Counted from the first letter of the stretch, positions 29,641 through 64,000 are shown. The stretch is DNA of 64,000 bases from Psammoneis japonica (GCA_008632985.1 QPGO01000005.1:1137607-1201606); one strand, 5' to 3'. The notes: generated by a model not told the origin, from the sequence alone. Program-made: numbers and translations.

Positions 29641-32600
29641 ACACAAGCCTTCTCCAGGGCCTCTTGACACATGACGATGAACAATTTTGGTGATCAAGCA
29701 ATCAACAATCCACAAAACAAGAGAAACAATGCAACCCCAATTAACCCACACAATGAGAACAATCAATGGACAGACTGTGATGAGTTCAAGTGCAGCAATG
29801 CAAGTTTTGAGGTCAAACAAATGCTGCTCCGTGTCGCCAATTTCCCAAGTGCAATTGCACTGAGTGTTTGCTTGATTTCTGACAAGTTCCTCTGCTTGAA
29901 CATGCAGACAAATTTTCTCTCTTTGTGACAACTTTCTCTGCATTGCCACAGATTGACAATGAGATGAACAAGCCATGACAACAAGTGGAACCACAGTGCA
30001 AGATCTGGCTTGAGATGACTTGATAAAAAGGACAACTGTGTTGGAACCAAAAAAAGACCCCAGTCAGCTCATCACCAATTGGAGGGCTTCCAACGGTTCT
30101 CTGAATGTCCAACACGTTGGTCAATGTGCACGCATCAGAGAGGGCACACTCAGTCTTAAGCACATGTCCCTGTTTCGTTCACCAGCTGCACTTTCCTGCA
30201 ACAGCAAGGAAAATGACCACAAAATGACGGTGACCCAAACATTGTGCACTGTTGCACAAAAGTGCAGCCGGATGCAGACCAGGGACATCACATGTGGGGT
30301 CAATGAGTGCACGCTGGGCTGTGCACAAAACTGTTTCACCTGCCACCTCTTGTTTGAAACCAAAAATTGGTCAAATTGAAAATTTGAGCACACCTTGCAT
30401 GCCAAAACCGACCATTTTCTTTCAATCTGTCTGCGGACCCAGTTCAAAAAACGATCAGAAAGTTGACATTTTGACACACAGGATTTTCAAAAACTCAAAA
30501 TGGACCCATTCTGCTGATTTTTGAGAGCGGGTCTGCCAACACCTCATTTCCTTGTTGTTTTCAGTGCAAAAATGTGCAGCTGTCGGCCAAAAATTCCATT
30601 TTTTGATTTTGAGTGAGCACTTCCTTCTTGTTCCTTTTTGACCACAGGAGCCACAGGGCCGTGCTGTTTCCCACTGATGGTGTCTCTGAACACATGAAAT
30701 GGCCCAGTTGTGTGCATCCCCCGTGCTGTGTCCTGTGCTCTTTGCAGGTGGTGCGCATTTGTCACTGCCAGCATTGACACATCTATCACCATCTCCTTTG
30801 GGTTCCTCTTCTTCCGTGGGAGGCGTCGATGCTTCCTGAGGATTGACTCCTGCCTTTCTGACATGGAGCTCGTCTCGCCACTCACCGCGGCCGAATTCAT
30901 CCCGCCAGTTTCTGCCATTTTCGGCCGAAAATTCTTCAGTGAACATGACAAAACCTTGCCACTGCTGCATGAAGTGTGACACCATCAATGCAAAAGGAGA
31001 CAATCCGTGAATGCTGAATGCTGTTGACACAGTGCAACAGCCAGCACAAGACGTTGCCAGACGCCGGACGCCGCATGCATGGGACGCCGCGGACACCGAA
31101 TTTTCTGAAGAGAATGAGAAGGCGAAGTGCGGGACGACGCGACTCTGGACAGCATCTGTCCAATTCAGTTCTCTCGTCAGTGCGTTTCTGGTGTTGCAAT
31201 GGCAATTTTTTGACGTGCGAAAAATGAGAAGAGTCTGTCCAGCGTTCACCGAAAACTCCGTACACACTGATTAACGGGCTGTTTGGTACCAATTCTACGC
31301 AAGATTCTTTGGACAGAAGCTGTCCAGATCCGTAGCGCCCACATCCCACATCCACATCCCTCATTCATTCGAGCCAACTCGATTATGTTGGTGTTGTTTG
31401 TTGGTCAATGTGCTGCGTGCTACAGCTTCAGTTTGTTTGATAAGCACTCGTTTCTCCCTCCTCTGTTTGCTCTGGTGATCCGGAAATCGATTGCTGCAGC
31501 CAGGCTGTCATTTGTGGAAATGCACTTTTTTTCACCTGTACATATCGCAGTAGCATCTGAAAAGACAGAGTGAAATCAATGCGAGAGCAAGAACGTGTGA
31601 GTTACTGGTGCGCATGGTCTTTCCGCGTTGATTGACCAGGCACTCCCTGCCCCATTCATTGACATCGTGAAACTGCCCAGCCATGCATATGCGATCGAGG
31701 ACGGCCAGTATTGCCATTTTTGAAGAACAAAGACCTACTTGGCCACTCGTGGCCGTCAACTCCAGCATATCTACTTCTACCAGACCATCAATAAACATGC
31801 TGATTTGTTGAGAACCAAACTTGTTGGATATGTCGATGCATGGGATCAACAACATGGCACATATAGCAATGGTGTTACTGTGGACAGTTAGCCCAATCCC
31901 ATGTTGGCGGCACATACGCGATTCTCAGATTGTGCTAAGGATGATCGGCAGTGCAACAAAGGAGTTTGGAAGACACTGGATATACAGATTGTTGGAAATG
32001 AGTCCTTCGGATATGATTCTATCGAAAGAGATCTGTTTTCGTGTCGAATCACTTCGGTCTATTGATGCGGCTTGTATCTCAGTGAAAGAGGCTGCCGTAG
32101 GTCATTACTGTTTACTTCTTGAAACTGCAGTGAGCGTGCTCGGGGATATAGATAATGTATCACAGATTTCTTACGTCGAGACCATTATCCTTGGTGATAT
32201 CCGATTCAAATAATTTGATTTTTCCTTATCAAGAACATGGTTAGTGCTCTCTTTGTTGATGAGAACCTGGTATCTCGGAGCTACCCGGCCATCGAAGAAA
32301 CTTGAGGGCGCACTCCAGTATTTCCCGGGTTACGATCAGAGGTCTCCGGGGGTCTCAAGGTCGTTGGATCGAAGGATCTCTCGTACAGTGCAACGTCGTA
32401 GGAATCGACAAGGAGAACTCTCACTCTTGATAGCTTCCGGTTGAATATAGCTTGGGTTGCGGTTCTCCTCCCTCCGGGTGCTGGCCTTCCATTCTCTGGA
32501 GTCGGTAGAGATATCGGAAGCAAGTCCTGGTAGAACGCATACAGGTAGAGAGTTTGAGATAGCGGGAAGCGGCTAGCTAGTCAACTCTTATGGTAGGTCG

Positions 32601-32834
32601 TTGGATAGATCTAATGGCGCGCATTCAAAGTACGGCTCAGCTACTTCCTTATTATCACGGCAGACATTACTATCGATCGATCAAATACATCCAGCTCTTC
32701 AGTTCGAGAGAGGCTGAAGTGCGGAACGGAGCATTCCATAAAGATGAGATACCGTTTCGAGTGCCGTGGAAGTGGATCAGCACAACGGTATTGCAACTAC
32801 ACCTCCCTAAAGTTTCTTACTTCTACGACAGGCT

Positions 32835-34559
32835 CTAGCTAGATGCCTGGCCACCTTGGCGACCCATGTGCGCATAAAACGCAGAATCCTCCTCACTTGT
32901 TTTTCGCTTCGTTACCACATTCTCTTCGTACCGTTCTCGACGTTTCTGCGATTTGTTCAGCGCGCTAATCTTCTCTTCATATGTTGTGCCCCGTGACCGT
33001 TGCAACAATGGCACATACGCCATCTCTCTCGCTCCCAACGGGTCTGCCTCAAGCTTTCTTTTTTCCATCCAAGTAAAGGCTTCTCCCCATGTAACTAAAG
33101 AACTCGAGGATAACGTAGAGGTACTCGTTGAATTTTGCATATCTCTATCGCCAACATCATTCTTAGAGCTGAATTGCCTTTGCTTCTTCTTGCGTTCTTG
33201 GAGCCTCGCCTCAACAAATGACTGGACATCTTCATTGGTGACAGACTCGTTTCTCAGGTCCTGGATGCTGTTTCGAACACGTGCAGCGGCTAAAGCTAAC
33301 TCCTCCCATTGCTGCTCCAACTGGCAAGTAACTTTCCAAAAGTTCTCAACGTTGAATCCAAATTTGAGATCAGGATAACCACAAGCATGTAAAACCAAGG
33401 GACGTTCGTCTGCAAGGTGGTAACTTGGCTTTCCGGGATTCTCCTCGACGTTCAATAACTCCTTGATAATCGATGGGCTTTCCAACCCTTGGCCCACGAG
33501 AAACAAGACGCTCGCAATGCATCGGATCTGATGCCACAGAAACGCTTGCCCTTTTATCTCTAAATAGCACACGTCATTATTCTGCGGGGCACTGGAAGGC
33601 AAAACAATATCAGCAGAGAGTATTTCTCGCTCAAAATTGTAAACTTTCTCCACGTCCATTTTGCAGAAATTACGAAAGTCGTGTTTTCCGATCATCAACT
33701 TGAGAGCTTCTTCCATCTTTTCGATGTCTAAACTCCTGCGCACAAAAAAGTATCTGTAGGTACGAGTACTCGCTGAGAATCGAGCTGAAAACTCTTCTGA
33801 TACAGGCGACCATCCAAGGATCCGAATGGTGCCAGGCAAAACATTGTTGAGAATCTTGGCGTAGGAGTATTCCGTGATTGTTTTCTTTATTCTGGGTCCG
33901 TCTCCCTTTTTGGGGGGCACCCAAATCGTGATTTTGTCGAGAGAATTGCGTGGCAACCTGTCGTTGTCTACTAGCAATTGACCTTCTTCGTCCCATGAAG
34001 CTTCCTGATGAATAGCACTTTTCAGTTGGAACGCGACTACTTGCCCAGCCGCACTCACTCCTTTATCTGTCCGACCACAACGTGAATATCCACTTGACGC
34101 TCGTGACTGAACCAATCTCGTCTTCATGAGCGCTTCAAAAAGTGCCTTCTCAACTGATTGATCGCTCTCCATCCCTACATTTTGAGCTAGCCCGGTGTAA
34201 TTGCCGCCGTCGTAGTAAAAGTTTAGCGCCACGTGCCTGGTTCTATAAGGAGCGAGATCAGTGGTACGGGATTGATTTGCCTTCTTCTTATCTGGAGAGG
34301 TCGACTCTGAACTTTTAGGGCTTTTCTCCGCCGCCGCGCTTTCCGGCTTTGCTAACTCTGTGAGCACCGACTGGTATGCTGACTTGACACTTTCTGGCAA
34401 CACCACCTTTGTTTCCAACAGGTGATTCAACAGTTGCAACGGTGATGGCACGTCATCGTCCTTTCCGTTTGCGACAAACCCAACTCCACAATCAGGAAGT
34501 CGCCGCAAAAGCGTGGAAAGTCTGTCGCGGATACTTTCCACTTTATTAATAATATTCAT
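32835..34559 (-). CDS. PUS3: tRNA pseudouridine synthase, TruA family (Pus3/Deg1-like)
   Basis: 574-aa intact ORF with RHVALNFYYDG, YSRCGRTDKGVSA (catalytic Asp), FSARFS, HDFRNFCK, AFLWHQIRCI. The first ~22 codons lie inside a transposon end. Confidence 0.92.
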   Translation of the reverse strand: MNIINKVESIRDRLSTLLRRLPDCGVGFVANGKDDDVPSPLQLLNHLLETKVVLPESVKSAYQSVLTELAKPESAAAEKSPKSSESTSPDKKKANQSRTTDLAPYRTRHVALNFYYDGGNYTGLAQNVGMESDQSVEKALFEALMKTRLVQSRASSGYSRCGRTDKGVSAAGQVVAFQLKSAIHQEASWDEEGQLLVDNDRLPRNSLDKITIWVPPKKGDGPRIKKTITEYSYAKILNNVLPGTIRILGWSPVSEEFSARFSASTRTYRYFFVRRSLDIEKMEEALKLMIGKHDFRNFCKMDVEKVYNFEREILSADIVLPSSAPQNNDVCYLEIKGQAFLWHQIRCIASVLFLVGQGLESPSIIKELLNVEENPGKPSYHLADERPLVLHACGYPDLKFGFNVENFWKVTCQLEQQWEELALAAARVRNSIQDLRNESVTNEDVQSFVEARLQERKKKQRQFSSKNDVGDRDMQNSTSTSTLSSSSLVTWGEAFTWMEKRKLEADPLGAREMAYVPLLQRSRGTTYEEKISALNKSQKRRERYEENVVTKRKTSEEDSAFYAHMGRQGGQASS

Positions 34560-35538
34560 ATATATTGAAATATGAAATTATTAATATGTTATGAATAACT
34601 TATATTTCCGTTGTTATATTGCCCTTATAACCTAAGTAATTTTGGTTCGCAACCGTTGAGTGATAATGTTTTATATATATAGTGATAAAGTGTTCATTAA
34701 AAGAGGATCATTATGACCGTTTTTGATCAATGACTTTCCACGATAGAATTACATCGTGGAATACTTTCCACGATGCTATCGTGGAAAGTGAAGACTTTCC
34801 ACGATTGTAACGTGGAAAGTCATATGACTTTCCACGATGACTTTCCAGCTTTCGAGGCTTATGTAAATGCCTGTACGTAAAATAGGGTCATATGACAAAA
34901 TTTTGATCTCATCGCAACGCCTTGATGCCTATAAATCTTGCCATTTTCCAACATGATTTTGGAACAACTTGTTCAAGAGCCGGGCTCGGTCTCCTTAATG
35001 CACGCATCAAGAACTTCGCATGCCTTTCGGAGACGTTTCGCCACGGCATCAAGAAGCATCGACGATGCTTCGAGGCCTGTGCGTGATTGCGCAATACCAG
35101 AGTTGGATGGAATGTGGCTCACCCCTCTTTGACATTTAGAGTGTGTGACGTCACATCACGATGTTTCTAGTCATTAACATTTAACAAATGACTTTCCACG
35201 ATGAGCAGTCATTAATGACTTTCCACGATATTAAATGACTTTCCACGATAGCATCGTGGAAAGTAAAGACTTTCCACGATAGAATTGAATCGTGGAATAC
35301 TTTCCACGATGCGACTACCTTCCGTTGAATTATGACTGCATTGAATAATCGTTGTATTCAGTAATTAAATGTGTTTGAATTGATTGGGCAGAAAGTATTT
35401 TTTCAACGGAAATTGAGAGGGCAATGTGAGGATTCAGATGTCCTGTTCACGTAATCCCATTGTAGATTCTATACTGAGAAGTGCGAGCGTGCCCAGCACG
35501 ACACTCAACGTACTTTCCACGCTTTTGCGGCGACTTCC
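34495..35538. mobile_element. ~1.04-kb non-autonomous TIR DNA transposon (MITE-like)
   Basis: Perfect 27-bp inverted repeat GGAAGTCGCCGCAAAAGCGTGGAAAGT at 34495-34521 and 35512-35538; many internal direct and inverted ACTTTCCACGAT motifs; no transposase; no clear TSD. Confidence 0.8.
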
Positions 35539-36087
35539 AGAGAGTGACATTGAGTCATGCTTGCCAGAGGAGAGACTTGGGACGTGGCAAGCAGCAGAAG
35601 ACACCGTAAAGAGATGAGGCGATGAGCGATGATGTAGAAGCAGCAAGCGTCAATGACTTTCCACGACATCAAATGACTTTCCACGATGGCATCGTGGAAA
35701 GTAAAGACTTTCCACGACAGAATTGAATCGTGGAATGCTTTCCACGATGCGACTGCCTTCCGTTGAATTGTGGCTGCATTGAACAATCATTGTGTGCAGC
35801 AGTTGAATGTGTTTGAATTGATTGGGCAGAAAGCATTTTTTCAACGGAAATTGAGAGGGCAATGTGTGGATTCAGATGTCCTGTTCACGTGGTCCCATTG
35901 TAGATTCCATGCTGAGAAGTGCGAGCGTGCCCAGCGCGACACTCAACGTACTTTTCACGCTTTTGCGGCGACTTCCAGAGAGTGACATTGAGTCATGCTT
36001 GCTGGAGGAGAGACTTGGGACGTGGCAAGCAGCAGAAGACACCGTAAAGAGATGAGGCGATGAGCGATGATGTGGAAGCAGCAAGCG
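35212..36087 (+). repeat. 438-bp tandem duplication (35212-35649 and 35650-36087) covering the right TIR and flank
   Basis: Ungapped manual alignment. Confidence 0.95.
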
Positions 36088-36115
36088 ACGCCCCACGCAC
36101 TGGCCTCTCACTGAC

Positions 36116-36438
36116 TGAATGACACCGGTCTCAGAAAGTTGGAGGGCAGCAGGGTGCAGCCAAGCTGTTGTCTTTCTTGTCAGTGCAGGCTGCACCAGCA
36201 CTGTGCTTTGTGTGTGGCGCGGCGTTGGCATCAGTGTGCTTTCGCGTGAGAAATTGAATGGATGCCACCATGATGGCCAAGAATTGGGTGTGAGACAAGA
36301 CAGAGTGTTGAACAGCATCAACAGGTTCTAGAATTGTGAGATGTTGTGCTGCTGGGGCCACTGGACAAGCGACAGTGGACCAATCACCAACAGTGCATGA
36401 ACTGCCTGCATCTGTGACAGCACATCAGCATTTGTTCA
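36116..36438 (-). repeat. Putative 3' LTR of the copia element
   Basis: On the minus strand it starts TGAA right after purine tract GAGGGGAC and could end TTCA at 36116. No second LTR in the window. Confidence 0.4.
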
Positions 36439-36559
36439 GTCCCCTCGAACTGACACTGGCTTTGCTCGGGTCAGATCGACAGACAAATGCAACCTGATGC
36501 TGCCCCATTCCAGGGTGGCAGTTGTGTTTTGGGGGTGGGAAAAGCCGCACCTGCACGGC

Positions 36560-38160
36560 AAACCCATTTGGTTTGCCCCCTTTTGGGACTTGCCATGGGA
36601 CATGACTGATGATTTCCCGGAGCTTCGGTCCAGGCAACAACTCAGTTGGTGCATCCGCCAGATTTGTGCGTCCATCCTCCCAAGCAATGCGCAATGTTCC
36701 AGCGGCTTGTGCCTCATGAGTCCTGTGACAGGCAACTGCATTGTGCTTCTTCTTCAAAGTGGACTCTGGCCCAGTTGAGTTCTTGAAGACAGCTTCATTG
36801 TCGCAGAAAACGTCAGTGGCCCCATCCATGGGGATTCTGAGCATCCAAAGCTTGCAATGCAAGGCTTCGATTTGCTCCACTGCAGTCTTCACAGCCACGA
36901 ACTCCGACCCAAAAGTGGAGGACTCTGCGGCATTCTGCTGCTTGGAGTGACACAAGATGGGCGCTCGTTGGACAAATGTCAGGATCCCAGTGTGGGACCT
37001 GCGCGTCACATGGCATCCGGCGTGATCAGCATCGACAAAGCAAGCAGTTGCTCAAACACCAGCACAGACTTAGAATGAGCCTTCAAGTGTGCAAAGACAT
37101 GGAGCACTTCATCCAGGTGTCCAACTTGTGGTGCCGCCAAGTGGGAGGACATGAGCAAGACAGCGACAAAAATGTCCACTCGCCCCAGTTCAACTGCCCA
37201 CCGCAGCACACCAATGAGTCCTTGACAGCAGTTGGCCATTTTGGCGTTCAACTCAGGTGAACCATCCAGTTCAGGCCTGTGTCCCGAGCTCAAGGGCGTC
37301 GACGCCTTCGTCGGAAGACACCCATCAGTTTTCTCAAGCTCCAATTCAACGTCAGCTGATGCCCTTTTGACACAAAGGTCAGAGGACATGGCCCAGCGTG
37401 TCTCACCGTCCAAGTCAGACAGCTGGTGCTTTCTGATCTGGGCGCCCAAGTGCTCTTCCGGTTCGCAGACGCTTCGTCCTTGAGCGTGCACCTGGAGCTC
37501 ATGCAATCCATGACCTTCTGAGGTTCATGGGAGACACACAACAAGTCATCCACGTAGACAAGTGCGTGTTCCCAGCACTTGAAGCCATCCGGCTTAACCG
37601 CAGCCCACGTCCAGACATCCGGGTCAGCCTTGCAAGACTCAAATCCAGCGTCCCGCAGAGTGGCTGCCACATGTTCCCTAAATCTTGCACCTGAAGACTT
37701 GAGACCATGCAAGGCACGGACAATGATCGCCGGCCTTCCTTCGTTCTAGTTCCCAAATTCCAGGCCAGCAGTGGTGCAAGACTTTTCCTCAGTGTGTGCG
37801 TTCAAGCAGGCATTCTGAACATCAGCGCTCAGGACCTCCAGGTCATTCAGAGCTGCTGCAGTGAATGCTGTCCCAATGCTGTCACGCAACACCACGCTGG
37901 AACATGTCGATTCCTTGGGTGGATCGGTTTGATGGCCTCCGGCCGGAACCTCGCTTTGCGTTGGAGGGTGCTCTTGATGTCAAAGATCACATGACAATCA
38001 ATGTGTTTGCACCCGACCGGTGCAGCATCGTCATCGCGGAATTCAAACGCAGGCATGACGTTGCGCATTTCCTTCTCGACAGCCTTGAACCAGAAGTCGG
38101 TCCCCATTCTGTCATCTATTTCTACAGCTTCCTTGACAGATTTTGGGAGTTTGTCATGGC
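36560..38160 (-). mobile_element. Ty1/copia (CoDi-like) RT-RNase H relic, 5'-truncated
   Basis: FWFKAVEKEM, HVIFDIK...RKARF, HGLKSSGA, ADPDVW, LVYVDDLL, LRWAVELGRVDI, ESSTFGSEF, FCDNEAV, STLKKKHN, NLAD; frameshifted. Confidence 0.93.
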
Positions 38161-40204
38161 AGTGTTTGTTCACTTTGTCAGAGCCAGCGCGCTGTGATGT
38201 TCCTTGCCTGGAATGTGCATCGTGAACGGCACGACGGTGTTGGTGGCATTTGTTCAAAAACTCAAGCTCATCTGTGCCACAACATTGTGTGGATGCAAAC
38301 AAGAAATGTCAACCTGGATCAACAATTCTGCATCCCCAATGACGACGATTCCTCTGTCTCTGACAGTTTTGGACACTGTGCAAACCGCCGCCAGTTGCTG
38401 TGCACACAGACAAATTCTCATGACCAACCATTGGTCCACTCAGAAATTGAAAAGGAGTTGCCTCTTGCATTCTGCCACAGGCTAAAGAGCTTCAACCCAG
38501 AGCTGGCCAGTCATTCAGTGGACTGTGATGATGTGGATCACCTGTCACTTTTGCTCAACAAATTGTTGTTGTTGTTCCACTCCTTTTGCAGCTGTGGTTC
38601 TTCCCTGTGCTCATGAACCAATCGTGTTGACATTGAATGTCACCTTGTTCTTCTGATGTTTGAGCTGCGCAGCACAATCAATCGTGGCAAAGGCACACAT
38701 GGATGGAAAACGTCAAAGTTCCACAATCTGCTTCACTTGATGACTGCTCTTTGTTGATTGGGCACATTTTCTGGATGGGATGCCGCAGCGGGCGAGTCTG
38801 GTCTAAAGAAATGGGCAAAGCTTCCCAGCCAGACCTGCCAAGCCTCGCAAGGCAAAGAAGAGTTCACCCGCCAGCTTGCAAGCCAACTGCACAAGCAGAA
38901 TCTGTTGGAGAGAGCAAACAACTTGATTGTTTGTCCCCTTGCCACTGACAATTTGCCACCCAGCACAACATTGCACCACGACCTGGGGCACGCAATGTCC
39001 ACAGTTGACCAAGTCGAAAAAGCATGCTGCGAGTGCACTGGAACCCAGGAGATGAAAAGGGAATGAAGTGCTCATTTGGAGGAGGACATTGTAGATTTTT
39101 TGTGCCATCGCAACCAGTGGGGAATCAGACGGAGACACGTTGTGGTGTGTTTTGAGTCAAATCTACAGGCGGAACACAAGTTGAGATTTTGTGCCCACCC
39201 CAACTGTTGCAAGGCCGGGTGATGGCATGACTTTGCATGTGTCACATGCAGAAATGACAATGGAGCTGACAGCTTGTTTCCAGTGCAATTTTTTGCCGTT
39301 CTGAGTGATGACAAAAAAGAGGTTGTTGTTTTTGGGAGAACATGCAAGAAGCAAAGCGACATTGAAAGGGAAATGAGTGAGAACGGTTTGTTTCAGCATT
39401 GGCGAATGGAGGGCACATCACCCAAACACACCTTTCGACACAGTCAGAAAAACATGCTCATTGGTGGCGGCATGGGTGTTGTCTTGCCAAAGACAGCTCT
39501 GATTGACAGAAGGAAGAAACAAAAAAAGGCCCAAAACAAAAAAAAGTGTTGAGAACAATTTAGAGGACAGCACCAAGGCAACCAGTTTGTCTCTGTCCAG
39601 CTCCATGTCTGATCAAGAGCTCTTGGACAACAAGACATTGTTTTTCCTTGACATGAAGGATGAGTGGCCGGACATCTTTTTAAATGGCGACATGCACTTG
39701 GGAGGCAGGAGTGCATGTGAAGTGAGACAAATTGTCAAAACAAAGTTTTTTTCCTCACATGATTTTCCCGAATTCCATCAGCGTCATTTGGCAGAATGCT
39801 GCAAGGTTGGAATGTGACCACACACTCTCCGGGTCAGTTGTGTGGTTGCACTCAGCAACAAATTCCTCCAGTCTGCACCATTTGTCGACTGCAAAGAACT
39901 CGATCCTGTGTTTGAATCCATGTGTTTTGCGGCAGCAGTGCACAACTCCTGGCATTGCATGGGAAAGAAGACTGTGCCATCGTCACGCAGGAAAATGAAG
40001 TCCTCTGTCAAACCATGCTTCTTTGGACAGCGCAGGTGGCAAGAGAGCTGGTCCATGCATGCCACAGTCGCTGACATTTTGTTGTTGAGCATCAGTCTCC
40101 GCGCAGCTTCGCACATCTTCTGCACCTCCTCCAGTGTGATTCTGCCGGAATGTTCAACAGGACAGCTGTCTGCTGCAGTGTCAACACATGCCAATTTGCT
40201 GGGG

Positions 40205-40710
40205 CTTTTGTGTTTTCCCTGCATTTCCGTGCTTTCATGTTTTCCCGCATTTCCTTGTTTTTGTGTTTTTGCACATTTCCATGTTTTCCCGCATTTTCGT
40301 GTTTTCGTGTTTTCCCACATTTCCACGTTTTTGTGTTTTCCTGCATTTCTGGGTTTTCATGTTTTTCCACATTTCCATGTTTTCATGTTTTCCTGCATTT
40401 CCATGTTTTTGTTTTTTCATGTTTTTCCATGTTTCCGTGTTTTCATGTTTTCCTGCATTTCCATGTTTTTGTGTTTCCCATGTTTCCGGGTTTTTGTGTT
40501 TTCCCGCATTTCTGTGTTTTGTGTTTTCCTGCATTTCCGTGTTTTTGTGTTTTCCTGCATTTCCGGGTTTTCGTGTTCTCCCGCATTTCCGTGTTTTCAT
40601 GTTTTCCCACATTTCCACGTTTTTGTGTTTTTCCACATTTCCGTGTTTTCATGTTTTCCTGCATTTCTGTGTTTTCATTTTTTCCATGTTTGCCTGCATT
40701 TCCATGTTTT
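40205..40710. repeat. Degenerate ~19-27-bp minisatellite (ttttcc(c/t)gcatttcc(g/a)tgt-like)
   Basis: Tandem units directly visible. Confidence 0.9.
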
Positions 40711-41274
40711 GACGTGTTCCAGTCCCAGGTGACACACAAAACGACAATCGATTTTGAACATGAGGCATGCACACATTAGTGTGTGAAGCATTTTCATGTG
40801 AAATGCTCAAACGGATTGGCTTTTACAGGCATCTAGAGTGTGAACAATTGTGAAGAATTGAACAGTTTTTTGTGGGGTGTCAAATTCCTCATGGGACATG
40901 CATCACAAACTTCCTCAGTGGACTCAATGCTGATTGTGCGTCCGCACTCTTCATGCGCAAATTTCTTTGCAAGTGGCAAACACACTGAAAACCATTGCAG
41001 AAAGATGTGTTTGGTTGACATCCAAACAGCGGCAACAATTTCGCCAAAAATCATCCGTTGTGTTACGATTCGTTTGTCGCAATGAAAAACATTGATGGCA
41101 CAATGACAATGATTTTGCAACACTCACACGAGTCTTGCCAGTGTTGCAAAACATTAGAATTTGAACAAATCTGTGCTTTTGGTGGTGAAAAACCGTTCGC
41201 AAGTCAGAGACCGCGCAAAAATTGCGCAAATGTCGTTTTTGCACACGATTTGGGTCACGTGCGGCTGGAACACG

Positions 41275-41550
41275 TCTTTTCATGCATTTCCGTGTTTCTG
41301 TGTTTTCATGATTTCCCGCATTTCCGTGTTTTTGTGTTTTCCCGCATTTCCGTGTTTTTGCAATTTCCTGGTTTTTGTGTCACCCCGCATTTCCAAGTTT
41401 TTGTGTTTTCCTGCATTTCAGGGTTTTCGTGTTTTCCCACATTTCCGGGCTTTCCTGTTTTCCTGTTTTCCTGCATTTCAGGTTTTTCATGTTTTCCCGC
41501 ATTTCCTGGTTTTCATGTTTTCTCTCATTTCTGTGTTTTCCTGCATTTCC
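41275..41550. repeat. Second block of the same minisatellite
   Basis: Same unit as 40205-40710. Confidence 0.9.
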
Positions 41551-42924
41551 AAATCATGTGCAGCACACGACTGTCATGTGCGTGTCTGCAATTGAATGTT
41601 GTTGTTTGTGCGTCAATCGCACCACAGTCACAGATGGGTGCGAAGGACAGAACGATCACACAGAGTTGGTCAGAAGTCGAAAATTGCAAACACAATTGAT
41701 TGACAATGTTGGCTTCTCACGTGTCAACAGCAATCACACCTGGACAATCTGTTGTCACGAACATGTTTTCTGAAAGGCCTTTTGTCTGCAGAAGCAGTGC
41801 AGAAGCTTTGGGCCATTGAGAACTCCTTCGGAGAAACCAAAAATCACAGAGCAAAGTTAAATCTCACAATTTTCACTTTTCGCACTTCATTCTGCTGTTG
41901 TTTGCACTCATTCTTTGAGCACAGTGCATTGTGCATGCACACCACAGAAGGCAAAAACATGACAAAAAATGGGAGTTGAGGGCACAAAATCACAAAGGGC
42001 ACAAACTTTCCTGGGGCACAAAAAAAATCACTGAGTGGAGTGAGAGTGCAAAATGGCAGCTGAGGGCTCAAAGTTGCAAAGGGCACAAGTTGGCCAAGGG
42101 CAGCACAAAAGGCACAAAGGGCACGAAGTGGCCAGCTGCAAAAAACCAGGAAGAGCAAAAGTGCAAAGTGGCCAAGGGCACAAAATCATGAATGGAAAAA
42201 TGGCGGTGGCAGCGGGCAGCAGTTGTGCCACCATTGTGACTCAAGTTGTTGTCGCAGCTGCCCTCATGCTGTCATTGTTGCACTTTACAAAAAAGCCAAG
42301 ATGCGGCACGCAAGGGGACAAATCGGTGAAATCTGTCTCTGCATCATGGGGAAGCCCATTTGTCCCCCATGATGCGCTCATTCTCGGCTCTGCATGTTGG
42401 GGGTCACAGCATGTTGGGTGAGCATGTCAACCTCTCCCCCCCAACATGCCATTCCCGTGCCATGCACGCTTTTGTTGACACGCCACAGAAGCCATTTTGC
42501 TTGACCTGGCTTCATCACGAGTGTTCTTTGATCAACAGCTGCAGGTGATGTTGCCCTTTTTTTGTGGTGTCCTCTTTTGTTGCTGATGTGTCCACTCCAC
42601 GTCAGCTCTCCATTTTTGTGGGCGCATGCCTCCTCGTCTCCTTCCCTTGTGTTGCCATCCACACCACCGGCGTTGCGCTCCATTCTGCCCAAACACATGT
42701 GTTGTTTGAAGCAACAAACCCTGCTCTGCTTTCCCAAGGCATTTGCGGCAGTTGCCACGTTGGCTTTGCTCCAGTGCCCCCAGTGCCAAACACTTGCACC
42801 ACAAATCTTGTTTGATCAGCGCCCTTGCCAGCGGGCTGTGTCCCTTCAGTGCCCCCCACAACATGTGGCGGGTCATGTGCAAAGATTGTCCTCGATTTAA
42901 AGACCGCCTTTGGAGCTTCATGGA

Positions 42925-43240
42925 AGTGCGCAAATGCGCAAATGCACAAATGCAGAAGTGCAAAAATGCAAAAATGCAAAAATGCAAAAATGCGAAAATG
43001 CAAAAAATGCGGAAATGCGGAAATGCGGAAATGCGAAAAATGCGGAAATGCGGAAATGCCGAAATGCTGAAATGCGGAAATCCGAAAATGCAGAAATGCG
43101 GAAATGCGGGAACGCGGAAATGCGGAAATGCGGAAATGTGGAAATGCGAAAATGCAAAAATGCAAAAATGCGGAAATGCAAAAATGCGGGAATGCAGAAA
43201 AACACGAAAACACGGAAATGTGGAAATGCGAAAATGCAAA
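42925..43240. repeat. Degenerate 8-bp satellite (RAAATGCR)
   Basis: aaaatgca / gaaatgcg units. Confidence 0.9.
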
Positions 43241-43245
43241 AAGGG

Positions 43246-43293
43246 CCAGGGTTGGGGTCAGGGTTGGGTTTGGGGCTGGGGTCAGGGTTGGGG
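43246..43293 (+). repeat. Eroded interstitial telomere-like hexamer array (8 units)
   Basis: ccaggg ttgggg tcaggg ttgggt ttgggg ctgggg tcaggg ttgggg; most units are one transition from TTAGGG. Confidence 0.7.
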
Positions 43294-43399
43294 TTTGTCT
43301 CTGAATCTTTGGCACATGACATCTTGTCCATCAACATGACAATGTTTTTTGTGTGTTGGTTTCATGACAAGGTGCTGTGCTCAGCAAATGTCCGCCAAA

Positions 43400-43800
43400 G
43401 TGCTGTGGCGGTGTTTCAAGCTCAAGACGAAATTGGTTGGAGACAGATTTTTAATGGGCGCTTCTCATCTTTGTGGAACAAAGCTCAGCCATCATGCTTG
43501 CTGTCAGCTGGATTGTGCCGCTCCTTGTCGAACATGGAAAAGCGCTCAGATTGGGCTGCTGCGATTGGCAGTTTTGTGTGGCCCCAATGGCGGGAACTCT
43601 CCATGGCGGCACTGCACATGGGCACAATTTGGGCACAAGAAAGTCCTCACAGCACCGTGACGCCAAGGCCGAAGCATGAGCCATCCACTCCAAGGCAGAC
43701 AGTTGTTCAGCTTGCAATCGATCCGAGTTGCTCAGTTCAGCGGAGGAGCATCTCACTTGTTTGACCCACAGGTTGCGCAGCTGGTTGGCCATGGCTCAAC
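43400..43800 (+). mobile_element. C-terminal fragment of a diatom non-LTR (Ambal-like) retrotransposon ORF, partly repeated near 49650 and 55740
   Basis: QDEIGWRQIFNGRFSSLW...WAAAIGSFVWPQWREL matches the QxxIGW...GR...W pattern recalled for these elements. Confidence 0.5.
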
Positions 43801-46800
43801 CAGTGCTCAAGTCAAGCATCTGCAAAGCCTGGCATCTGGCAGCGAGGGGCACTGGCGCCGCTGCAAGTTGTTTTGGCACAACATCACCTCAGGGTGATGC
43901 CGGTTGAGGACGTGCAAAACCAACAATTTGACTGCAATGTGAAAAGTTGACTCCATCATGATGCTCCATTGGAGAGGGCAGTCTGGAGATGGCCAGGTGC
44001 ACTTTTTATGCAGAAGCTGCACGAGAGCCAAGCACGTGCATTCCTGCACAGACGCAGCACAAAAACAGAAAACAGAAAGCATGGCACGCCCATCAGCGAC
44101 TCACGACAACACCATGTGACGACCATGCATCAAAATGGCGTCATCCGCATCTTTCTGTGGCTCCTCTTTCACTTGCCCGATTGCCCCAAAAGGGCCAGGG
44201 AAAGCTCGTGCACTTCTGTCATGATGGACCAATGCAAGCTGAAGTTGTTCTTTTCACTCCACAACATCAGAATGCAGCGCAACAGATTTTCAAGGTGCGC
44301 CCGCATGTTGGCTGTGCTGTCAGCCAAATCAGTGCCATTTGCCGTTCGCTCACTTGGCGAGTTGCAAAGCCAACGACTCTTGTTGGCTGAAACTCTTGAG
44401 CCACTTTTGAGACTTGACACAATGACCCACTTGTCCCGTTCTTCACCCTCTGTGTTTCATCAGAGGCGGCAATGCAGTGTTGCTCACTTTCCTTTGTAAA
44501 TTTTGGAGCACTGAATTGCACAAAAGTGTGCTGTTGTTGTTCAGCTTCAGTTTCAATTTTAAGAGTCAAGTTGAATTTGTTGTTTCCTTTTTGTGTGTGC
44601 AATTGTCACCTTTTTGTTTTGATTTAAATTCGCCGAAGACTTTCAACATGTGTTTCATTGTCGAAAAACAAGTTTTGTTTTGATGAATTTGTCGCACATG
44701 TGTCACCAACGAACCTCTTTTTGCACATGCCTTGTTTGAAGAGTGTCATTTGTGGCAACTTGCAATGACTGGCCAATGGCAAAGGTGGCTGAACTCTGTT
44801 TGTGCTTGATGCGTCAACTTGGAGAGTGGGGGTCTGGGGTGTTTGTGCACTCCTTTGTGCTGCACAAGCCAAGCTGAGCCTCCTGTGTTTGTGAAGGTCA
44901 TTGTGCAGTTGCAAGGAATGTGTGCTTCATGGGTGGTGGCTTGTCTTCTGGGTTGCTTGGGCAGTTGGGGCATGCCAGCTTGGATGGCACGGGAGGCATG
45001 AACTTCTTTTTTCACACCCTGTGGCTGGTGGCGCCTCTCAGCAAAATGGCTGCAGATTGAGCAAATGCAGACACCCATGCAGTGTTTCTAAATTGCCTTT
45101 TTGTCTCTGGTTTTGGCACAAGAGTGCGCTCCCATTGCCCAGCCAACTGTTGGGCACTGACCAAGAGTGACCCCCTCAACACTCCGCTGTCCACAGATGA
45201 GTTGGGAAACTCAGAAAAGCTTGCCTCCACATCAACCTGACTGGGGCTGGAGGTGGGAGAGCCTGGCAGACCTGGAGACATGAAAAAACTCTTGGCTGGG
45301 GAGGCTGCCTTGCCAAGCATTTGTGTGCTTTTCCCTCCAATGTGCGATGGAGACAACTGCAACACCCTGGCTGTTTTGGCTGGAGCTTGGCCAGCCCTCA
45401 ACCCAAATGGGGAAAAATCTGCTTGAGCAGGAGAAGCTGACAGCCCGCCAAGGTTGGGAGGTGCAGAGCAGGTGCCTGTTGCTCTGCTCACCATTGCAAG
45501 AGCGCCCCTTTGGTGCTGATCAAAACTCCATCCTGTCAAGCAAAAGCTTGGGCTGTGCAAACTGAGAAAAGAAATCTTGCTGCTCTGGGGCTGGGCCATC
45601 ATGCCCATCCTCAGGTTTGCTGTCTGAGGAACTCATGGTTGAGATGAGCCAAGGTGTTCAAAAGTGTTGGTTGTGTTGTGAGGGCTGGAGTTGAGAGTTT
45701 CTGTTGAAAATGAAAATTTGGGCCGCCATGTCCGGCAGGTGGGTCAGACTTCCTTTTGCAAAAATGCAAAGAACAGATGAAAGCTGCCAAGTTGAGATGG
45801 AACTCACCAAGCAGTGCTTGCACTGGGCTCAGCTCTTCTCGCACTGTTGGGAGAGGACCCTGCACAGCAGAGAAGCAGGGGTGCTTCTAGAAAGGGACAA
45901 AGACTGGCCTGGGCTTGCTCTGAGAAAAAAGTTTCTTGAAGCAGAAATGAGCCAGCTTTTTCCCAGCTGGTGTTCTCGGGGTTGTTCTCCAACTGGTGCA
46001 AGTGCTTTGAGCGCACCACTTCAATGGCTTCACCACCAGCAAAGCAGAAGCAGCGACAATGAGGTGCCACAATTTTTCTGCACAAAATCTGCCCCAGTGT
46101 CCTGTGGAAACAGCTTTCTGGGCAGAAAATTCCAGACACAAAATGAAAAAAAAACAAGTGCTGTTGAATTCTTTGTGTCACCTGAATTTCTGGTGAGTTT
46201 TGGTGAAGAGCAGAAAGGAGACAAGGAGTTGGTTGTGGCAGAAATTAAGCACCTGATGGTTGGTGTTGATTTGCTGTTTGACGTGTTCCAGCTCCAGGTG
46301 GGACCTCGTGCTGCTGAGCTGTTGCATGGTCATTTTTTGTCATCCGTCGCATGTTTCGCACGTGCATTTCTGCGTGTTCCATTGTAAAAAATTGTTCCAC
46401 ACTGCCTGTTTTGCAAAGCCAAAGGCTTTCTGTTGTCTGCACTTGTGTCAACAAAAACGCGCTGGGCATGTTCTTTGTTCTCCTGCAGAAGCACAGACAA
46501 AGACCAAAGGAAAACAAGAGGTTGGGAAAACAAAAAGGTGTGCTGGGTCAATGCAATCCGTCAAAATGCCATGGAGTGATTCACCAAATGAGGGTGTGAG
46601 AATGAAGCTGGGCAGTGTGATGACAGAAGCAGTTTTTGTTCATTTTTGGGCTTTCTCTCACACCTTTCTTTTCACAGATGCACTCATCAGAGCAAAACAA
46701 ATCATGCCATGCAATGGCGTTGTTGGTGGGAAAAGATTGTGGTGGCAAAATCTGGCAATGGTTGATGATGCCATCATGGTGGCATCAGCGGTGGTTGGCA

Positions 46801-49800
46801 GTTGGCAGCGGTGTGTTTTGAAGTGGGAGGGGAAATCTGACCTTGCGTCGCGACATTGCACGACGTTTGCCATGGTCCATGGTGTGCCAGAATCTGACAT
46901 TGTGTTGGCAACATCAGCAGTCATGTGGGAACAGCATGAAAAATGAGCAGCAGAGGGAAATCTGACCTTGTGTTGTGACGCTGCATGACGTTTCACTGTG
47001 GTGAGCCAGAACCCAACATTGTGGTGGCGACATCAGCAGCTGCATGAGGGCAGTGTGAAAAACAAGCAACAGAGGGAAATCTGACCTTGCATCATGACAT
47101 TGCATGATGTTTTGCCGTGGCAAGCCAGGGTCTGACATTGTGCGGCAGGCATCCCCACCGTGGCCACCGACGACGCCACTTTCCTGCATCTGCAGGCTGT
47201 CCGCAGCGATGCTGATCCTGCAGAAGCGTGCTGCAGAAAGCACGACACCCAGCGCAAGACCTGCAACAGGCCACAGGAGTGACCCGCATGACTGAGACCT
47301 GTGCAGCTGGCCATCACACAAGTGACTCGCCTTGTGTGAAGGGTCTGCTCAGGATGCACGCAGTGCCGAGCATGAGCCTGTGAATTGGCTCAGCATGAGT
47401 GTCAGCCAAGTGCTGCAAAAGACTCGTGCTCAAATCTTTCCAATGACTCATCACGCAAAAAGAACCCCCGCTTCTTGGAAAAAGACACCACCACGCATCT
47501 GCACTCTGGCCAAAACAATCTCACAATTTTTGCACACACAGAAAACAAATCTCCATCTCTGTGGTTTGGGTGCTTGTCCCCCATTTCTGCGTGGGTCAGC
47601 TGCAGCCATGGCATTGCAGCATGTGTCAAAATGGGGGACAAGTGGTTGCCAACTGCCAAGGTTTCATTGCAGCCAACGAGCGGTCCAAGGTGGCAAAGGG
47701 CACAAAACCACAATGGCCAAAAACTGCTGAAGGCACAAAATCATGAGGGGCGCCAAATGTGGCTGAGGGCCCAAAACCAAAAAAGGCACAAAATGGCCAA
47801 GGGCACAAAGTCACAAAGGGTGCAAAATGGCCAAGGGCACAAAACCATGAGATGGGGCAAAATGCTCAAGGGCACAAAAAAAGGATGGGGCACAAAACAG
47901 CCAAGGGCACAAAAAGGTCAAGGGCACAAAGCCAAGAATTGCGCAACATGGCTGGGGGCACAAAATCTCAAAGGTGCCCCCAGTGCCAAACACTTGCGCC
48001 ACAAATCTTGTTTGGTCAGCGCCCTGCCAGTGGGCTGTGTCCCTCCAGTGCCCCCTGCAACATGTGGCGAGATTGTTCTCGATTTGGAGCTTCGCAAAAT
48101 GCGAAAATGCGAAAATGCGAAAATGCGAAAATGCGAAAATGCGAAAATGCGAAAATGCGAAAATGCGAAAATGCGAAAATGCGAAAATGCGAAAATGCGA
48201 AAATGCGAAAATGCGAAAATGCGAAAATGCGAAAATGCGAAAATGCGAAAATGCGAAAATGCGAAAATGCGAAAATGCGAAAATGCGAAAATGCGAAAAT
48301 GCGAAAATGCGAAAATGCGAAAATGCGAAAATGCGAAAATGCGAAAATGCGAAAATGCGAAAATGCGAAAATGCGAAAATGCGAAAATGCGAAAATGCGA
48401 AAATGCGAAAATGCGAAAATGCGAAAATGATGTGACGCACCAAATTCCGTTGAGAGTGTCCAGGTTCCGACCTCAGAGACGATCGCATTTTTCAGTTTGG
48501 CAAAACGCCATTGTCCGTGCTGTTTTGCGTGTTGTTTTGAGCCGCAGAGCCAGAGAACACTCCCAAAAAATTGCTCTGAAGGGCAAAATGTGCTGAATCT
48601 GCACAGATTTGGGTTGCGCCAGGCCACGCAGAAAGTGAGCAGGCTAAAAACTCCGGCGCACCCACTTGAGCACATTCAACAACTGGCTGACAAAAGACTG
48701 GTTGACTGCTTTCCCAAAGCACCGCTTGTGTTGTGCCCTTCCCCAGCTGCTCTCCAGCTGGTGCCGTGGAGTGCAGTCGCTCAATTTGGATTGTGTCTGC
48801 AACGTCATTTGCAACAAACGTGGCTGCCGCTTTTCACACATTGTCTGCCAAACAGGTTTTGGCTCCAGCTCGTGTGTCTCAGCGCAACCCGCCGCACGGC
48901 TTTCCTCATCCCCCAGCCCACTGCCCCCCTCCTCCACTTTTCTGCCGACTGGCTCCAGCCCTGGGTGGGACTTTTTGCAACATTTGCCCTGCAGAATTCC
49001 ACGTGCGAGCTCTGCAGTTCGCACTCTGGTCAGTGGACATGAATGCCAAAAGTTGTTGAATGGATCGCCCGGCAATTGTGCTGCAAAGCGATGCAAAATT
49101 TCTCCAAAATCACTTGGAAACGCACGTGCGCGACATGCGACACGATTCAAAAAACTGTCGATGTCACAATTCAGCAGTGCGAGGTCCCACCCAGACCTGG
49201 GGCGCATCTGCCACGCTCTGCCACAATCTTCCTGCAAAAATCCTCCCTCTTGCATTTCCTGGGCGCACTCCCTTCCGCATCTCCGTTCTTGGAGTTCCCT
49301 GCCGTGAAGCGCTCCAGGCATCTCGCGCACTTTTGTGCAAACAAGTCACATGTTTCCAGGTTGTGAACTGCCTCACAGCCAAAAGAAGCAATCTTTGCCT
49401 TTAGAATCACCATGGTGCGCTGGTCTGCCAAATCAAACTCAGCATCACCATGGACAGTCGGGGAGAAATGTTGTCAAAATTGCGCAATGACGTGTTTGAG
49501 CTCTTGAGAGCTCACCCAGCTTGAGACATCATGGCTCCAAGTCGCCATGTTTGTCACGAACTCTTCCTGATGCTGTGTCTGTGACTTGAATTGCCGCGGC
49601 CATCGCACTTCAGAGATGACATTCTTGACAAGAAAAAGCACCCCTGGGACGCGGTTGGAGACAGATTTTCAATGGGTGCTTCTCATCTTTGTGGAACAAA
49701 GCTCAGTCATCATGCTTGCTGTCAGCTGGATTGTGCCGCTCCTTGTCGAACATGGAAAAGTGCTCAGATTGGGCTGCTGCAATTGGCAGTTTTGTGTGGC

Positions 49801-61800: not shown

Positions 61801-64000
61801 TTCGACAAAACACACAGCACGAATGGCAGCGCACAAGGTTGGTCGTGGCGCAACAGAAGCAACGTTGTCAATGCGAACCTTCAACAAGAATTTTTGCCAC
61901 AATCTGGTGATGCCGGTTGAGGACGTGCAAAACCAACAATTTGACTGCAATGTAAAAAGTTGACTCCATCATGATGCTCCATTTGAGAGGGCAGTCTGGA
62001 GATGGCCTGGTGCACTTTTTGTGCAGAAGCTGCACGAGAGCCAAGCATGTGCATTCCTGCACAGACACAGCACAAAAACAGAAAACAGAAAGCATGGCAC
62101 GCCCATCAGCGACTCACGACAACACCACGTGATGACCATGCATCAAAATGGCGTCATCTGCATCTTTCTGTGGCTCCTCTTTCACTTGCCCGATTGCCCC
62201 AAAAGGGCCAGGGAAAGCTTGCACACTTCTGTCATGATGGATCAATGCAAGCTGAAGTTGTTCTTTTCACTCCACAACATCAGAATGCAGCGCAACAGAT
62301 TGTCAAGGCACGCCCGCATGTTGGCTGTGCTGTCAGCCAAATCAACACCATTTGCCATTCGCTCACTTGGCAAATTACAAAGCCAACGACTCTTGTTGGC
62401 TGAAGCTCTTGAGCCACTTTTGAGACTTGACACAATGGCCCACTTGTCCCGTTCTTCACCCTCTGTGATTCATCAGAGGCGGCAATGCAGTGTTGCTCAC
62501 TTTCCTTTGCAAATTTTGGAACACTGAATTGCACAAAAGTGCGTTGTTGTTGTTCAGCTTCAATTTCAATTTTAAGAGTCAAGTTGAATTTGTTGTTTCC
62601 TTTTTGTGTGTGCAATTGTCACCTTTTTGTTTTGATTTAAATTCGCTGAAGACTTTCAACATGTGCTTCATTGTCGAAAAACAAGTTTTGTTTTGACGAA
62701 TTTGTCGCACATGTGTCAAAAACCAACGAACCTCTTTTTGCACATGCCTTGTTTGAAGAGTGTCATTTGTGGCAACTTGCAATGATTGGCCAATGGCAAA
62801 GGTGGTTGAACTCCATTTGTGCTTGATGCATCAACTTGGAGAGTGGGGGTCTGGGGTGTTTGTGCATTCCTTTGTGCTGCACAAGCCAAGCTGAGCCTCC
62901 TGTGTTTGTGAAGGTCATTGTGCAGCTGCAAGGAATGTGTGCTTCATGGGTGGTGGCTTGTCTTCTGGGTTGCTTGGGCAGTTGGGGCATGCCAGCTTGG
63001 ATGGCATGGGAGGAATGGGAGGCATGAACTTCTTTTTTCACACCAGCTCTTCTCACACTGTTGGGAGAGGACCCTGCACAGCAGAGAAGCAGGGGTGCTT
63101 CTAGAAAGGGACAAAGACTGGCCTGGGCTTGCTCTGAGAAAAAAGTTTCTTGAAGCAGAAATGAGCCAGCTTTTTCCCAGCTGGTGTTCTCGGGGTTGTT
63201 CTCCAACTGGTGCAAGTGCTTTGGGCACACCACTTCAATGGCTTCACCACCAGCAAAGCAGAAGCAGTGACAATGAGGTGCCACAATTTTTCTGCACAAA
63301 ATCTGCCCCAGTGCACGTGCATCTCTGTTCGCACTCGAAGTTTTGGACAGCGCGCCTGCCCCATGCTGTTCTCAAAGACACTCGAGAATGGTGCAGAAGA
63401 AAAAAACGCCAAAAGTTGTTGAATGGATCGCCTGACAATTGTGCTGCAAAGCGATGCAAAATTTCTCCAAAATCACTCAGAAATGCACGTGCGCGACATG
63501 CGACGCGATTCAAAAAACTGTCGATGTCACAGTTCAGCAGTGCGAGGTCCCACCCAGACCTGGAGCGTGTCTGCCACGCTCTGCCACAATCTTCCTGCAA
63601 AAAATCCTCCCTCTTGCATTTCCTGGGTGCACTCCCTTCAGCATCTCCGTTCTTGGAGTTCCCTGTCGTGAAGTGCTCCAGGCATCTCGCGCACTTTCGT
63701 GCAAACAAGTCACGTGTTTCCAGGTTGTGAACTGCCTCACAGCCAAAAGAAGCAATCTTTGCCTTTGGAGTCACCATGATGCACTGGTCTGCCAAATCAA
63801 ACTCAGCATCACCATGGACAGTCGGGGAGAAATGTCATCAAAACTGCGTGATGATGTGTTTGAGCTCTTGAGAGCTCACCCAGCTTAAGACATCATGGCT
63901 CCAAGTCGCCGTGTTTGTCGTGAACTCTTCCTGATGCTGTGTCTGTGACTTGGCTTCATCGTTGAATTGCCGTGGCCATCGCACTTCAGAGATGACATTC
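43435..64000 (+). repeat. Tandem array of a ~5.7-6.2-kb composite unit: three near-complete copies and a deleted fourth
   Basis: Anchor gatgccggttgaggacg at about 43896, 50114, 56203 and 61909; copies are highly similar and differ by transitions and internal deletions. Confidence 0.95.
48096..48423 (+). repeat. Perfect (AAAATGCG)41 array
   Basis: 328 bp of uninterrupted 8-bp units; shorter imperfect counterparts near 54313-54388 and 60239-60371. Confidence 0.97.

Follow-up and report, generated by a model that had tools for sequence, protein, structure and literature searches.

We analyzed a stretch of 64,000 nucleotides from the genome of the pennate diatom Psammoneis japonica (GCA_008632985.1, QPGO01000005.1:1137607-1201606; hereafter the window), in which a transposon with terminal inverted repeats (TIRs) lies at the 5' end of a gene for a tRNA pseudouridine(38/39) synthase-like protein and ends in a 438-bp tandem duplication. 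The copy of the duplication nearer to the gene (copy 1) has an ordinary content of the dinucleotide TpA; in the distal copy (copy 2) most of the corresponding sites read TpG or CpA. This pattern is probably the work of a regional process that converts TpA to TpG or CpA in place and that hit the distal copy together with the displaced flank of the transposon, while sparing the gene-proximal copy.

The duplication was found in several ways. A repeat search of the window returned a repeat pair at an offset of 438 with 91% identity across the first 300 nt, and Tandem Repeats Finder delimited it as 35214-36087 (period 438, 2.0 copies, 94% matches, 0% indels). When 35204-35649 is aligned without gaps to the DNA lying 438 nt farther downstream, 30 of 446 columns differ; for the two copies as such, 35212-35649 and 35650-36087, 411 of 438 columns are identical and 27 differ. 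These differences are concentrated at TpA, affecting 17 of the 42 TpA columns and 10 of the 396 others (Fisher p=7.3e-13). Read in copy 2, the 21 TpA of copy 1 appear nine times as TG, eight times as CA and four times as TA, all four retained sites being GTA, and no TpA is unique to copy 2. Outside TpA columns there are 10 differences: two are transversions, and the transitions are A>G in five cases, C>T in two and G>A in one; a CCAGA/CTGGA site is among them. Over all differences, the distal copy shows A>G or T>C in 22 of 27 cases, G>A or C>T in 3 and transversions in 2. Each copy contains 23 CpG, the loss of one being offset by the gain of another. Copy 2 has lost 17 TpA since the duplication and copy 1 at most one, at the CCAGA/CTGGA site. 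The original prediction, made from the sequence alone, had described a 438-bp duplication with 17 of 21 TpA converted in one copy. Each of its counts was correct, and the gccaga/gctgga site that it listed is present in the alignment. The duplicated segment consists of the last 326 bp of the transposon, the trinucleotide CAG and 109 bp of unique flank. Because unique flank is included, the duplication is specific to this locus and hence younger than the transposon insertion.

Sequencing reads offered an external reference. Three public runs of one sample are listed, one of which holds the stretch, with 0.56 of its words; no RNA run is listed. Fragments of the run are at most 215 nt long over the duplication, and its contigs drop rare variants, some of which were filtered out. 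Some contigs represent an empty site: position 34492 is joined straight to 35976, so that 1483 nt are skipped and three letters fit both sides. The depth at this joint is 76 in run X1 and 130 in run X2, where it lies in a contig of 1282 nt.

The direction of change, TA to TG/CA with the distal copy derived, is supported by the agreement of motif consensus, left transposon arm, family contigs and empty-site form, all of which identify TA as ancestral. The motif is a 12-mer, ACTTTCCACGAT, with 19 matches in 34511-35747 as against 0.98 expected, and with none elsewhere in the window. Its last position is T in all 11 CACGA-type occurrences outside copy 2; within copy 2 it is C in exactly the two occurrences that are followed by A, and T in those followed by G. 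The one A1>G change of a copy-2 12-mer, at 35737, is preceded by T. The palindromic part of the left arm matches copy 1 at 28 of 28 positions (100%) and copy 2 at 96%, and family contigs from other transposon copies carry the copy-1 letter at 35789, 35794 and 35802. The comparison of the empty-site contig with the window extends this to non-mobile DNA. Across 35976-36182 the two differ at 12 positions, and at all eight of those that are listed the window has TG or CA where the reads have TA. At one of the eight, 36074, the reads have the state of copy 1; five are TG or CA in both window copies; 36113 and 36121 are flank TpA conversions beyond the duplication. The contig end beyond 36182 adds three A-to-G differences from the window, one of them at TpA. 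Leftward of the insertion none of the 17 TpA in 493 nt differs from the reads, and the only differences are at 34221 and one inserted G. The window therefore departs from the empty-site form at 12 positions in 207 nt on the right as against 2 in 493 nt on the left. Finally, one column of the 6.1-kb tandem units described below reads TG/TA/CA/CA and therefore needs a TA ancestor. The direction initially proposed was thus upheld at four sites by motif and left arm, at two by other family copies among the reads and at one flank site by the empty-site form.

Several properties of the process can be read from the two copies. Along copy 2 the nine TG and eight CA outcomes are interspersed (12 runs against 9.5 expected, z=1.3), in accordance with the strand symmetry claimed earlier; strand-coordinated editing, i.e. 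processive editing of a single strand, is rejected on the same runs test. TpA was lost faster than CpG, another claim that stands: in the distal copy 17 of 21 TpA are gone and 1 of 23 CpG (p=2e-7). Position dependence within a few hundred bp is also borne out as a reading, the copy junction coinciding with the edge of a TA-free domain. Sequence context was evaluated on non-redundant TA-free tracts (1-7000, 22500-30500 and 36100-49652). ATA/TAT accounts for 5 of the 64 surviving TpA there and for 376 of 742 TpA in the TA-normal islands (p=2e-12), and GTA/TAC is likewise under-represented among survivors (18/64 vs 362/742, p=0.002). By trinucleotide ratios the order of loss is ATA/TAT > GTA/TAC > CTA/TAG > TTA/TAA. 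Protection of GTA, which the original prediction had read from the four survivors of copy 2, is consequently not borne out, and as a general rule it is ruled out, since ATA/TAT is lost most completely and GTA/TAC is depleted among survivors. TTAA was observed to be over-represented among surviving TpA (19/64 vs 34/742 in islands); either no context is more resistant, or TTAA is replenished, e.g. as the target-site duplication of TTAA-inserting elements. Selection against TpA is ruled out as the main cause, the loss being near-total and located in non-coding repeats and a recent duplicate.

The contrast between the two copies is repeated on the scale of the whole window. The window-wide observed-to-expected ratio (O/E) of TpA is 0.216, and its distribution is bimodal. 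In 22 of 32 bins of 2 kb, about 70% of the window, TA O/E is 0.01-0.07, TG/CA O/E is 1.4-2.3 and CpG O/E is mostly 0.2-0.5. In the bins at 8-22 kb and 32-36 kb the respective values are 0.5-0.7, 0.9-1.3 and 0.8-1.1. TG and CA are nearly equal in total (6191 and 6151). The edges of the TA-normal islands lie at ~7.4-7.6 kb, 22.2 kb, 31.2 kb and 35.4-35.65 kb and are sharp to within 200 bp. Relative to CpG these edges are displaced: in 7000-7400, 22200-22600 and 30800-31200 TpA is zero where CpG still numbers 4-17 per 200 bp, and CpG drops to 1-3 per 200 bp only 200-400 bp farther out (three of four island edges). Depletion of the two dinucleotides therefore has common borders, with TpA loss extending nearer to the genes. 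The TA-free DNA is repeat DNA, as indicated by high read depth (3,000-20,000 over 36223-37500 vs ~125 for the synthase gene), by a tandem array of 6.1-kb units, 97% alike, at 43.4-64 kb, and by a retroelement remnant. The last is located at 28904-29457 on the minus strand, where two frames that overlap have matches to the RNase H domain of Ty3-type reverse transcriptases (E=1e-14 and 3e-8); it is a frameshifted remnant within TA-free DNA.

These results together establish the pattern as such and the direction of change within it, and they show that both strands are hit alike, that the limits are regional and sharp and that unique flanking DNA is affected, not only mobile copies. As changes are fixed in the unique flank, DNA must have been acted on in place, and not only RNA intermediates of mobile elements. 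The co-located depletion of CpG suggests methylated, silent chromatin.

A plausible history would start from an empty site with a TA-normal upstream region, into which, at the 5' end of the synthase gene, a TIR transposon of 1042 bp inserted. Five or more TpA of the flank would have been lost before the duplication, either before or after the insertion: five of the six flank differences within the duplicated part are common to both window copies, and the identical outcomes imply that these conversions predate the duplication (the chance of five identical outcomes, were they independent, is 1/32 by simple arithmetic). Next, the right end of the transposon and ~110 bp of flank would have been duplicated in tandem, and 17 further conversions would have followed in the distal copy, with at most one in the proximal copy. 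Each conversion would be an A:T to G:C transition at the self-complementary TpA, occurring on either strand at random and yielding TpG or CpA accordingly. Conversion appears to have halted at about the copy junction, so that neither the gene-proximal copy nor the remainder of the transposon was affected. The insertion would have moved the old upstream region ~1.5 kb away from the gene, and the border of the silent domain may then have advanced to about the copy junction. Repeat and retroelement DNA accounts for ~70% of the window, and the same process presumably stripped it of nearly all TpA. The process would be enzymatic and aimed at silent or repeat chromatin.

Several observations weigh against this history. 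The body of the transposon, which adjoins the hit copy, is rich in TA (21 TpA in 34600-34799), so repetition alone is not the signal and targeting is not simply directed at every repeat. Each of the four TpA surviving in copy 2 is a GTA (p=0.02), an outcome not accounted for by the preference seen window-wide. Ten differences between the copies, five of them A>G, lie outside TpA, and the specificity is therefore not absolute. The sole public run lists no piece that bridges the copy junction or covers both copies, and the duplication therefore rests on the assembly. Moreover, the G of the window at 36074, 36113 and 36121 is seen in no contig of this run, the entire depth reading A; the hypermutated flank, too, is thus known from the assembly alone.

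Alternative explanations concern the direction of change, the assembly and the reading of bases. A direction resembling the one in repeat-induced point mutation (RIP) would take TG/CA as the ancestor and let the proximal copy acquire TpA through C>T changes at the CpA of either strand. Pairwise the pattern is indeed symmetric, and 17 of the 83 TG and CA of copy 2 would be hit. Every polarizable site, however, gives TA as ancestral, which also answers the possibility, raised together with the original claim, of a family consensus matching the TG/CA copy. Furthermore, copy 1 and the islands contain ordinary TA (O/E 0.5-0.7) without excess, the abnormal state is the TG/CA-rich one (O/E 1.4-2.3, TA 0.01-0.07) found in decayed repeats, and the conserved housekeeping gene resides in TA-normal DNA. 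As for the hallmarks of RIP, the repeats are TA-free instead of TpA-rich from C>T at CpA, and one of the duplicate copies is spared instead of both being mutated. We therefore hold the reverse direction to be extremely improbable. The tandem arrangement might instead be an assembly artefact, in which a hit and an unhit allele or haplotype of one segment were stitched serially. The public sample is indeed an uneven mixture of haplotypes or strains: at least two forms are present in the run, with an empty-site depth of 76-84, a depth of 30-38 for other contigs and a 6%-divergent haplotype at 34215-34374. There is also the missing piece across 35649/35650, and only 0.56 of the words of the stretch occur in the run. 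On the other hand, the junction is cleanly head-to-tail with no indels over 438 bp, an assembler needs reads with the novel junction, and the five conversions that the two units share and the empty-site form lacks are consistent with paralogs on one haplotype. We consider such stitching improbable; were it true, the mutational contrast would stay real and the reading of position dependence within a few hundred bp would fall.

A modified base at TpA in silent DNA, read by a long-read base-caller as TG or CA, could in principle imitate the whole pattern. In line with this, run contigs read TA at no fewer than eight window TG/CA places in 35976-36182, and small discrepancies between window and reads exist at 34221 and after 34472. 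Yet run contigs match the TA-free sequence of 36223-37500, 270 of 1202 being at least 99% alike across the whole compared stretch, and the kinds of change are balanced (32 G>A and 24 C>T vs 22 A>G and 32 T>C). Among the 11 best-supported differences two restore TpA and five are CpG vs TpG, and the TA-bearing flank contig is structurally different (an empty site) and so belongs to another haplotype. A base-calling artefact is therefore unlikely for the TA-free tracts, a judgement that applies outside 35650-36222, and as an account of the pattern we give it very little credence. The chemistry of an in-place conversion leaves a more serious choice. Adenine deamination to hypoxanthine would be our first candidate. 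Thymine oxidation by an enzyme of the TET/JBP type, producing 5-hydroxymethyluracil (5hmU) or 5-formyluracil at TpA in silent repeats, would lead to T>C through mispairing with G. 5-Formyluracil mispairs with G. Because TpA is self-complementary, T>C on one strand is indistinguishable from A>G on the other, and the sequence is as compatible with oxidation as with deamination. In dinoflagellates 5hmU is enriched over repeats, and early work reported TA and TC contexts (PMC11071213); a 5hmU-making enzyme is reported to be linked to transposon silencing (PMC11572971). The former source also describes 5hmU without sequence preference in Breviolum. All five extra non-TpA transitions of the A:T to G:C type are A>G on the plus strand, and two of them follow the A of TAA, which would suit a deaminase with a relaxed 5' neighbour; neither this nor the Breviolum result is decisive. 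Altogether, thymine oxidation seems to us rather unlikely, with regional TpA conversion by adenine deamination as the preferred form of the process.

Signatures of the same kind have been described in the chlorarachniophyte Bigelowiella natans. According to a preprint (bioRxiv 10.64898/2026.01.13.699255, Mettrop et al., April 2026), two integrated viral regions acquired 231 de novo mutations in mutation-accumulation lines, of which 230 are A>G or T>C; each of the 230 is at TpA. The 95-Mb genome is reported there to contain 124 TpA-poor clusters rich in CpA and TpG that hold transposon and reverse-transcriptase remnants as well as unannotated DNA, and rho in an active region of nucleocytoplasmic large DNA virus (NCLDV) origin is given as 0.45. 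The likeness is extensive: A>G and T>C occur essentially only at TpA and yield TpG or CpA depending on the strand, the process is regional, and its scar is TpA-poor and rich in CpA and TpG. The differences are also considerable. The host there is a chlorarachniophyte and here a pennate diatom, a stramenopile; depletion here is near-saturated (O/E 0.01-0.07) over ~70% of the window; unique flank and one duplicate copy are hit, the border is no wider than 200 bp and CpG is depleted in the same DNA; and de novo events were measured there, whereas the events here are known by comparing sequences. The signature is of the same kind as that of Bigelowiella, the new aspects being the saturation, the sharp borders and the action on unique DNA and on one duplicate copy. 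In the consulted main text of the preprint there is no mention of diatoms, flanking-base context or 5hmU. Our literature search found no report of TpA or other dinucleotide hypermutation, or of RIP, in diatoms, and the Bigelowiella preprint was the sole report of a mutator of this kind that it found.

Resemblance to better-known systems is partial. RIP of ascomycete fungi is premeiotic and homology-sensing. It shares with the present pattern dinucleotide-specific transitions on both strands, riddled repeats and a compositional scar, but it makes TpA by C>T at CpA, while here TpA is destroyed and GC raised, and it hits both duplicate copies, while here one is spared. The decay of methylated CpG is similar in that a self-complementary dinucleotide is lost regionally to two transition products in silent repeats, and CpG is depleted in the same tracts here as well (O/E 0.2-0.5 in most bins). 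The target here, however, is TpA, the change is A:T>G:C and the loss is faster than that of CpG. Hyper-editing by ADAR and the activity of ADAT/TadA-type deaminases share the A>G change, the preference for T (U) as the 5' neighbour and additional A>G changes nearby (TAA>TGG), but their natural substrate is RNA; here the change is fixed in genomic DNA, non-mobile flank included, and conversions are not strand-coordinated. The 5' neighbour rule of ADAR is cited as quoted in bioRxiv 10.64898/2026.01.13.699255.

We see as evenly poised the broader proposition that the diatom runs DNA editing across chromatin domains which erases TpA in silent repeats almost entirely and faster than methylated CpG decays, with borders defined to about 200 bp, one of which advanced after a transposon insertion over a displaced promoter and one copy of a fresh duplication, and that, taken together with Bigelowiella, this represents a widespread and possibly ancient genome-defence mutator of SAR (stramenopiles, alveolates and Rhizaria). 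If true, the system would mirror fungal RIP, with a putative DNA adenine deaminase or thymine oxidase at its core. A mutator that raises GC, acts on one dinucleotide and is confined to one chromatin compartment is rare, and its presence in diatoms would mean that it is not an oddity of one lineage and that it shapes most non-genic DNA. Since TAA and TAG stops are removed, all six reading frames stay open; the open frames and the loss of TpA confound gene finding, repeat dating and models of GC content. The locus is a ready assay: a spared copy lies next to a hit one, the empty-site allele can serve as the outgroup, and the position of the border can be compared with that of chromatin marks.

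Table 1. Features of the window (positions are counted from its first nucleotide)
Feature	Position	Strand	Remarks
TA-normal island	31200..35650	.	5-21 TpA per 200 bp, CpG O/E ~1
tRNA pseudouridine(38/39) synthase-like open reading frame, 574 aa	32835..34559	-	PF01416, E=8e-29
Left target-site duplication CAG	34493..34495	.	right copy 35976-35978; copy inside duplication copy 1 at 35538-35540
Non-autonomous TIR DNA transposon	34496..35975	.	1480 bp with duplicated part; from empty-site joint, arm alignment and TIR matches
Left 26-bp TIR	34496..34521	+	repeat search and arm alignment
Left subterminal array of the 12-mer ACTTTCCACGAT, both orientations	34733..34837	.	right arrays 35191-35309, duplicated one 35656-35747
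Gene-proximal copy of the duplication (copy 1)	35212..35649	.	21 TpA, TA-normal composition
Right TIR in copy 1	35512..35537	-	26/26 identical to left TIR
Unique flank inside copy 1, former gene-upstream region	35541..35649	.	homologous to 35979-36087
Distal copy of the duplication (copy 2)	35650..36087	.	17/21 TpA converted, 4 GTA retained, CpG still 23
Right TIR in copy 2	35950..35975	-	25/26, one C>T mismatch
Right flank of transposon, displaced upstream region of gene	35979..36222	.	almost TA-free; at least 8 sites TG/CA vs TA in empty-site form
TA-free, CpG-poor repeat domain	36100..64000	.	high-copy from 36223; tandem 6.1-kb units from ~43.4 kb

The transposon (Table 1) has no long open reading frame (ORF) and, before the duplication, comprised 34496-35537. 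Its 26-bp TIR has three matches in the window as against none in shuffled sequence. Read depth over the element is 180-570 vs ~125, and contigs 90-95% alike align to it (in one public sample). The label of miniature inverted-repeat transposable element (MITE), applied to it originally, is partly justified: the element is non-autonomous and bounded by TIRs, but MITEs in the strict sense do not exceed ~800 bp. With 1042 bp, or 1480 bp including the duplication, the element is too large, and the duplicated unit moreover includes unique flank. A metagenome scan with the TIR as the query gave no matches. Within 34567-34884, four of the seven listed substitutions relative to other family copies are TA vs TG/CA (34567, 34628, 34778 and 34884), and the window carries TA at three of these four sites; other transposon copies seem to have been hit to differing degrees.

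Codons 1-22 of the synthase ORF fall within the transposon, with the first in-frame ATG at 34559. In the empty-site form an in-frame ATG precedes the insertion point by four codons (window 34493-34559 and 35976-35988). The insertion-bearing allele may thus be N-terminally altered or separated from its promoter. Relatives of the protein are at most 59% identical among the best 120, and all nine rows that name an organism are pennate diatoms; its placement in a protein atlas is eukaryotic and no finer. The ORFs of the island are uninterrupted, and chlorarachniophytes are described as intron-rich (PMC12730881). At 34215-34374 run X1 contains a near-identical form (depth 84) and a second form (depth 35) set apart, within 160 nt, by 10 substitutions and the deletion of 3 nt. 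All run contigs have C at 34221, where the window has G, and an extra G is found after 34472; these are small assembly errors or strain differences.

Coding potential in the TA-free tracts is slight. Of 54 ORFs of at least 150 aa, 53 had no Pfam match, the remaining one containing an antibiotic biosynthesis monooxygenase (ABM) domain at an island edge. When 59 of 77 stop-to-stop frames of at least 110 aa were searched (the 18 in 39787-43361 were left out), two matched Pfam, both with reverse transcriptase RNase H. Rfam and ARAGORN returned no matches, and neither did a metagenome scan with a stretch of the 6.1-kb repeat. About 3.5 units of this repeat, free of TA, occupy 43435-64000, each with long arrays of the 8-mer GGAAATGC (e.g. 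42922-43237); differences between units are nearly all transitions, in both directions about equally. Arrays of a 26-bp T-rich unit, with higher-order periods of 60 and 78 bp, are present in a TA-free tract at 40206-40685 and 41295-41550, and the bin holding them has a strong AT skew (-0.29).

Two further observations concern the TA-normal islands. Of two adjacent plus-strand ORFs, that at 19843-20544 matches peptidase M66 (E=1e-7) and that at 20648-21982 the TagA lipoprotein domain (E=7e-9); they may be one gene, of a mostly bacterial family, split by an intron or a frameshift. At 7438-8304, also on the plus strand, an ORF with two ABM domains begins in TA-free DNA and extends into the island, so that the TpA border at ~7.4-7.6 kb falls inside it.

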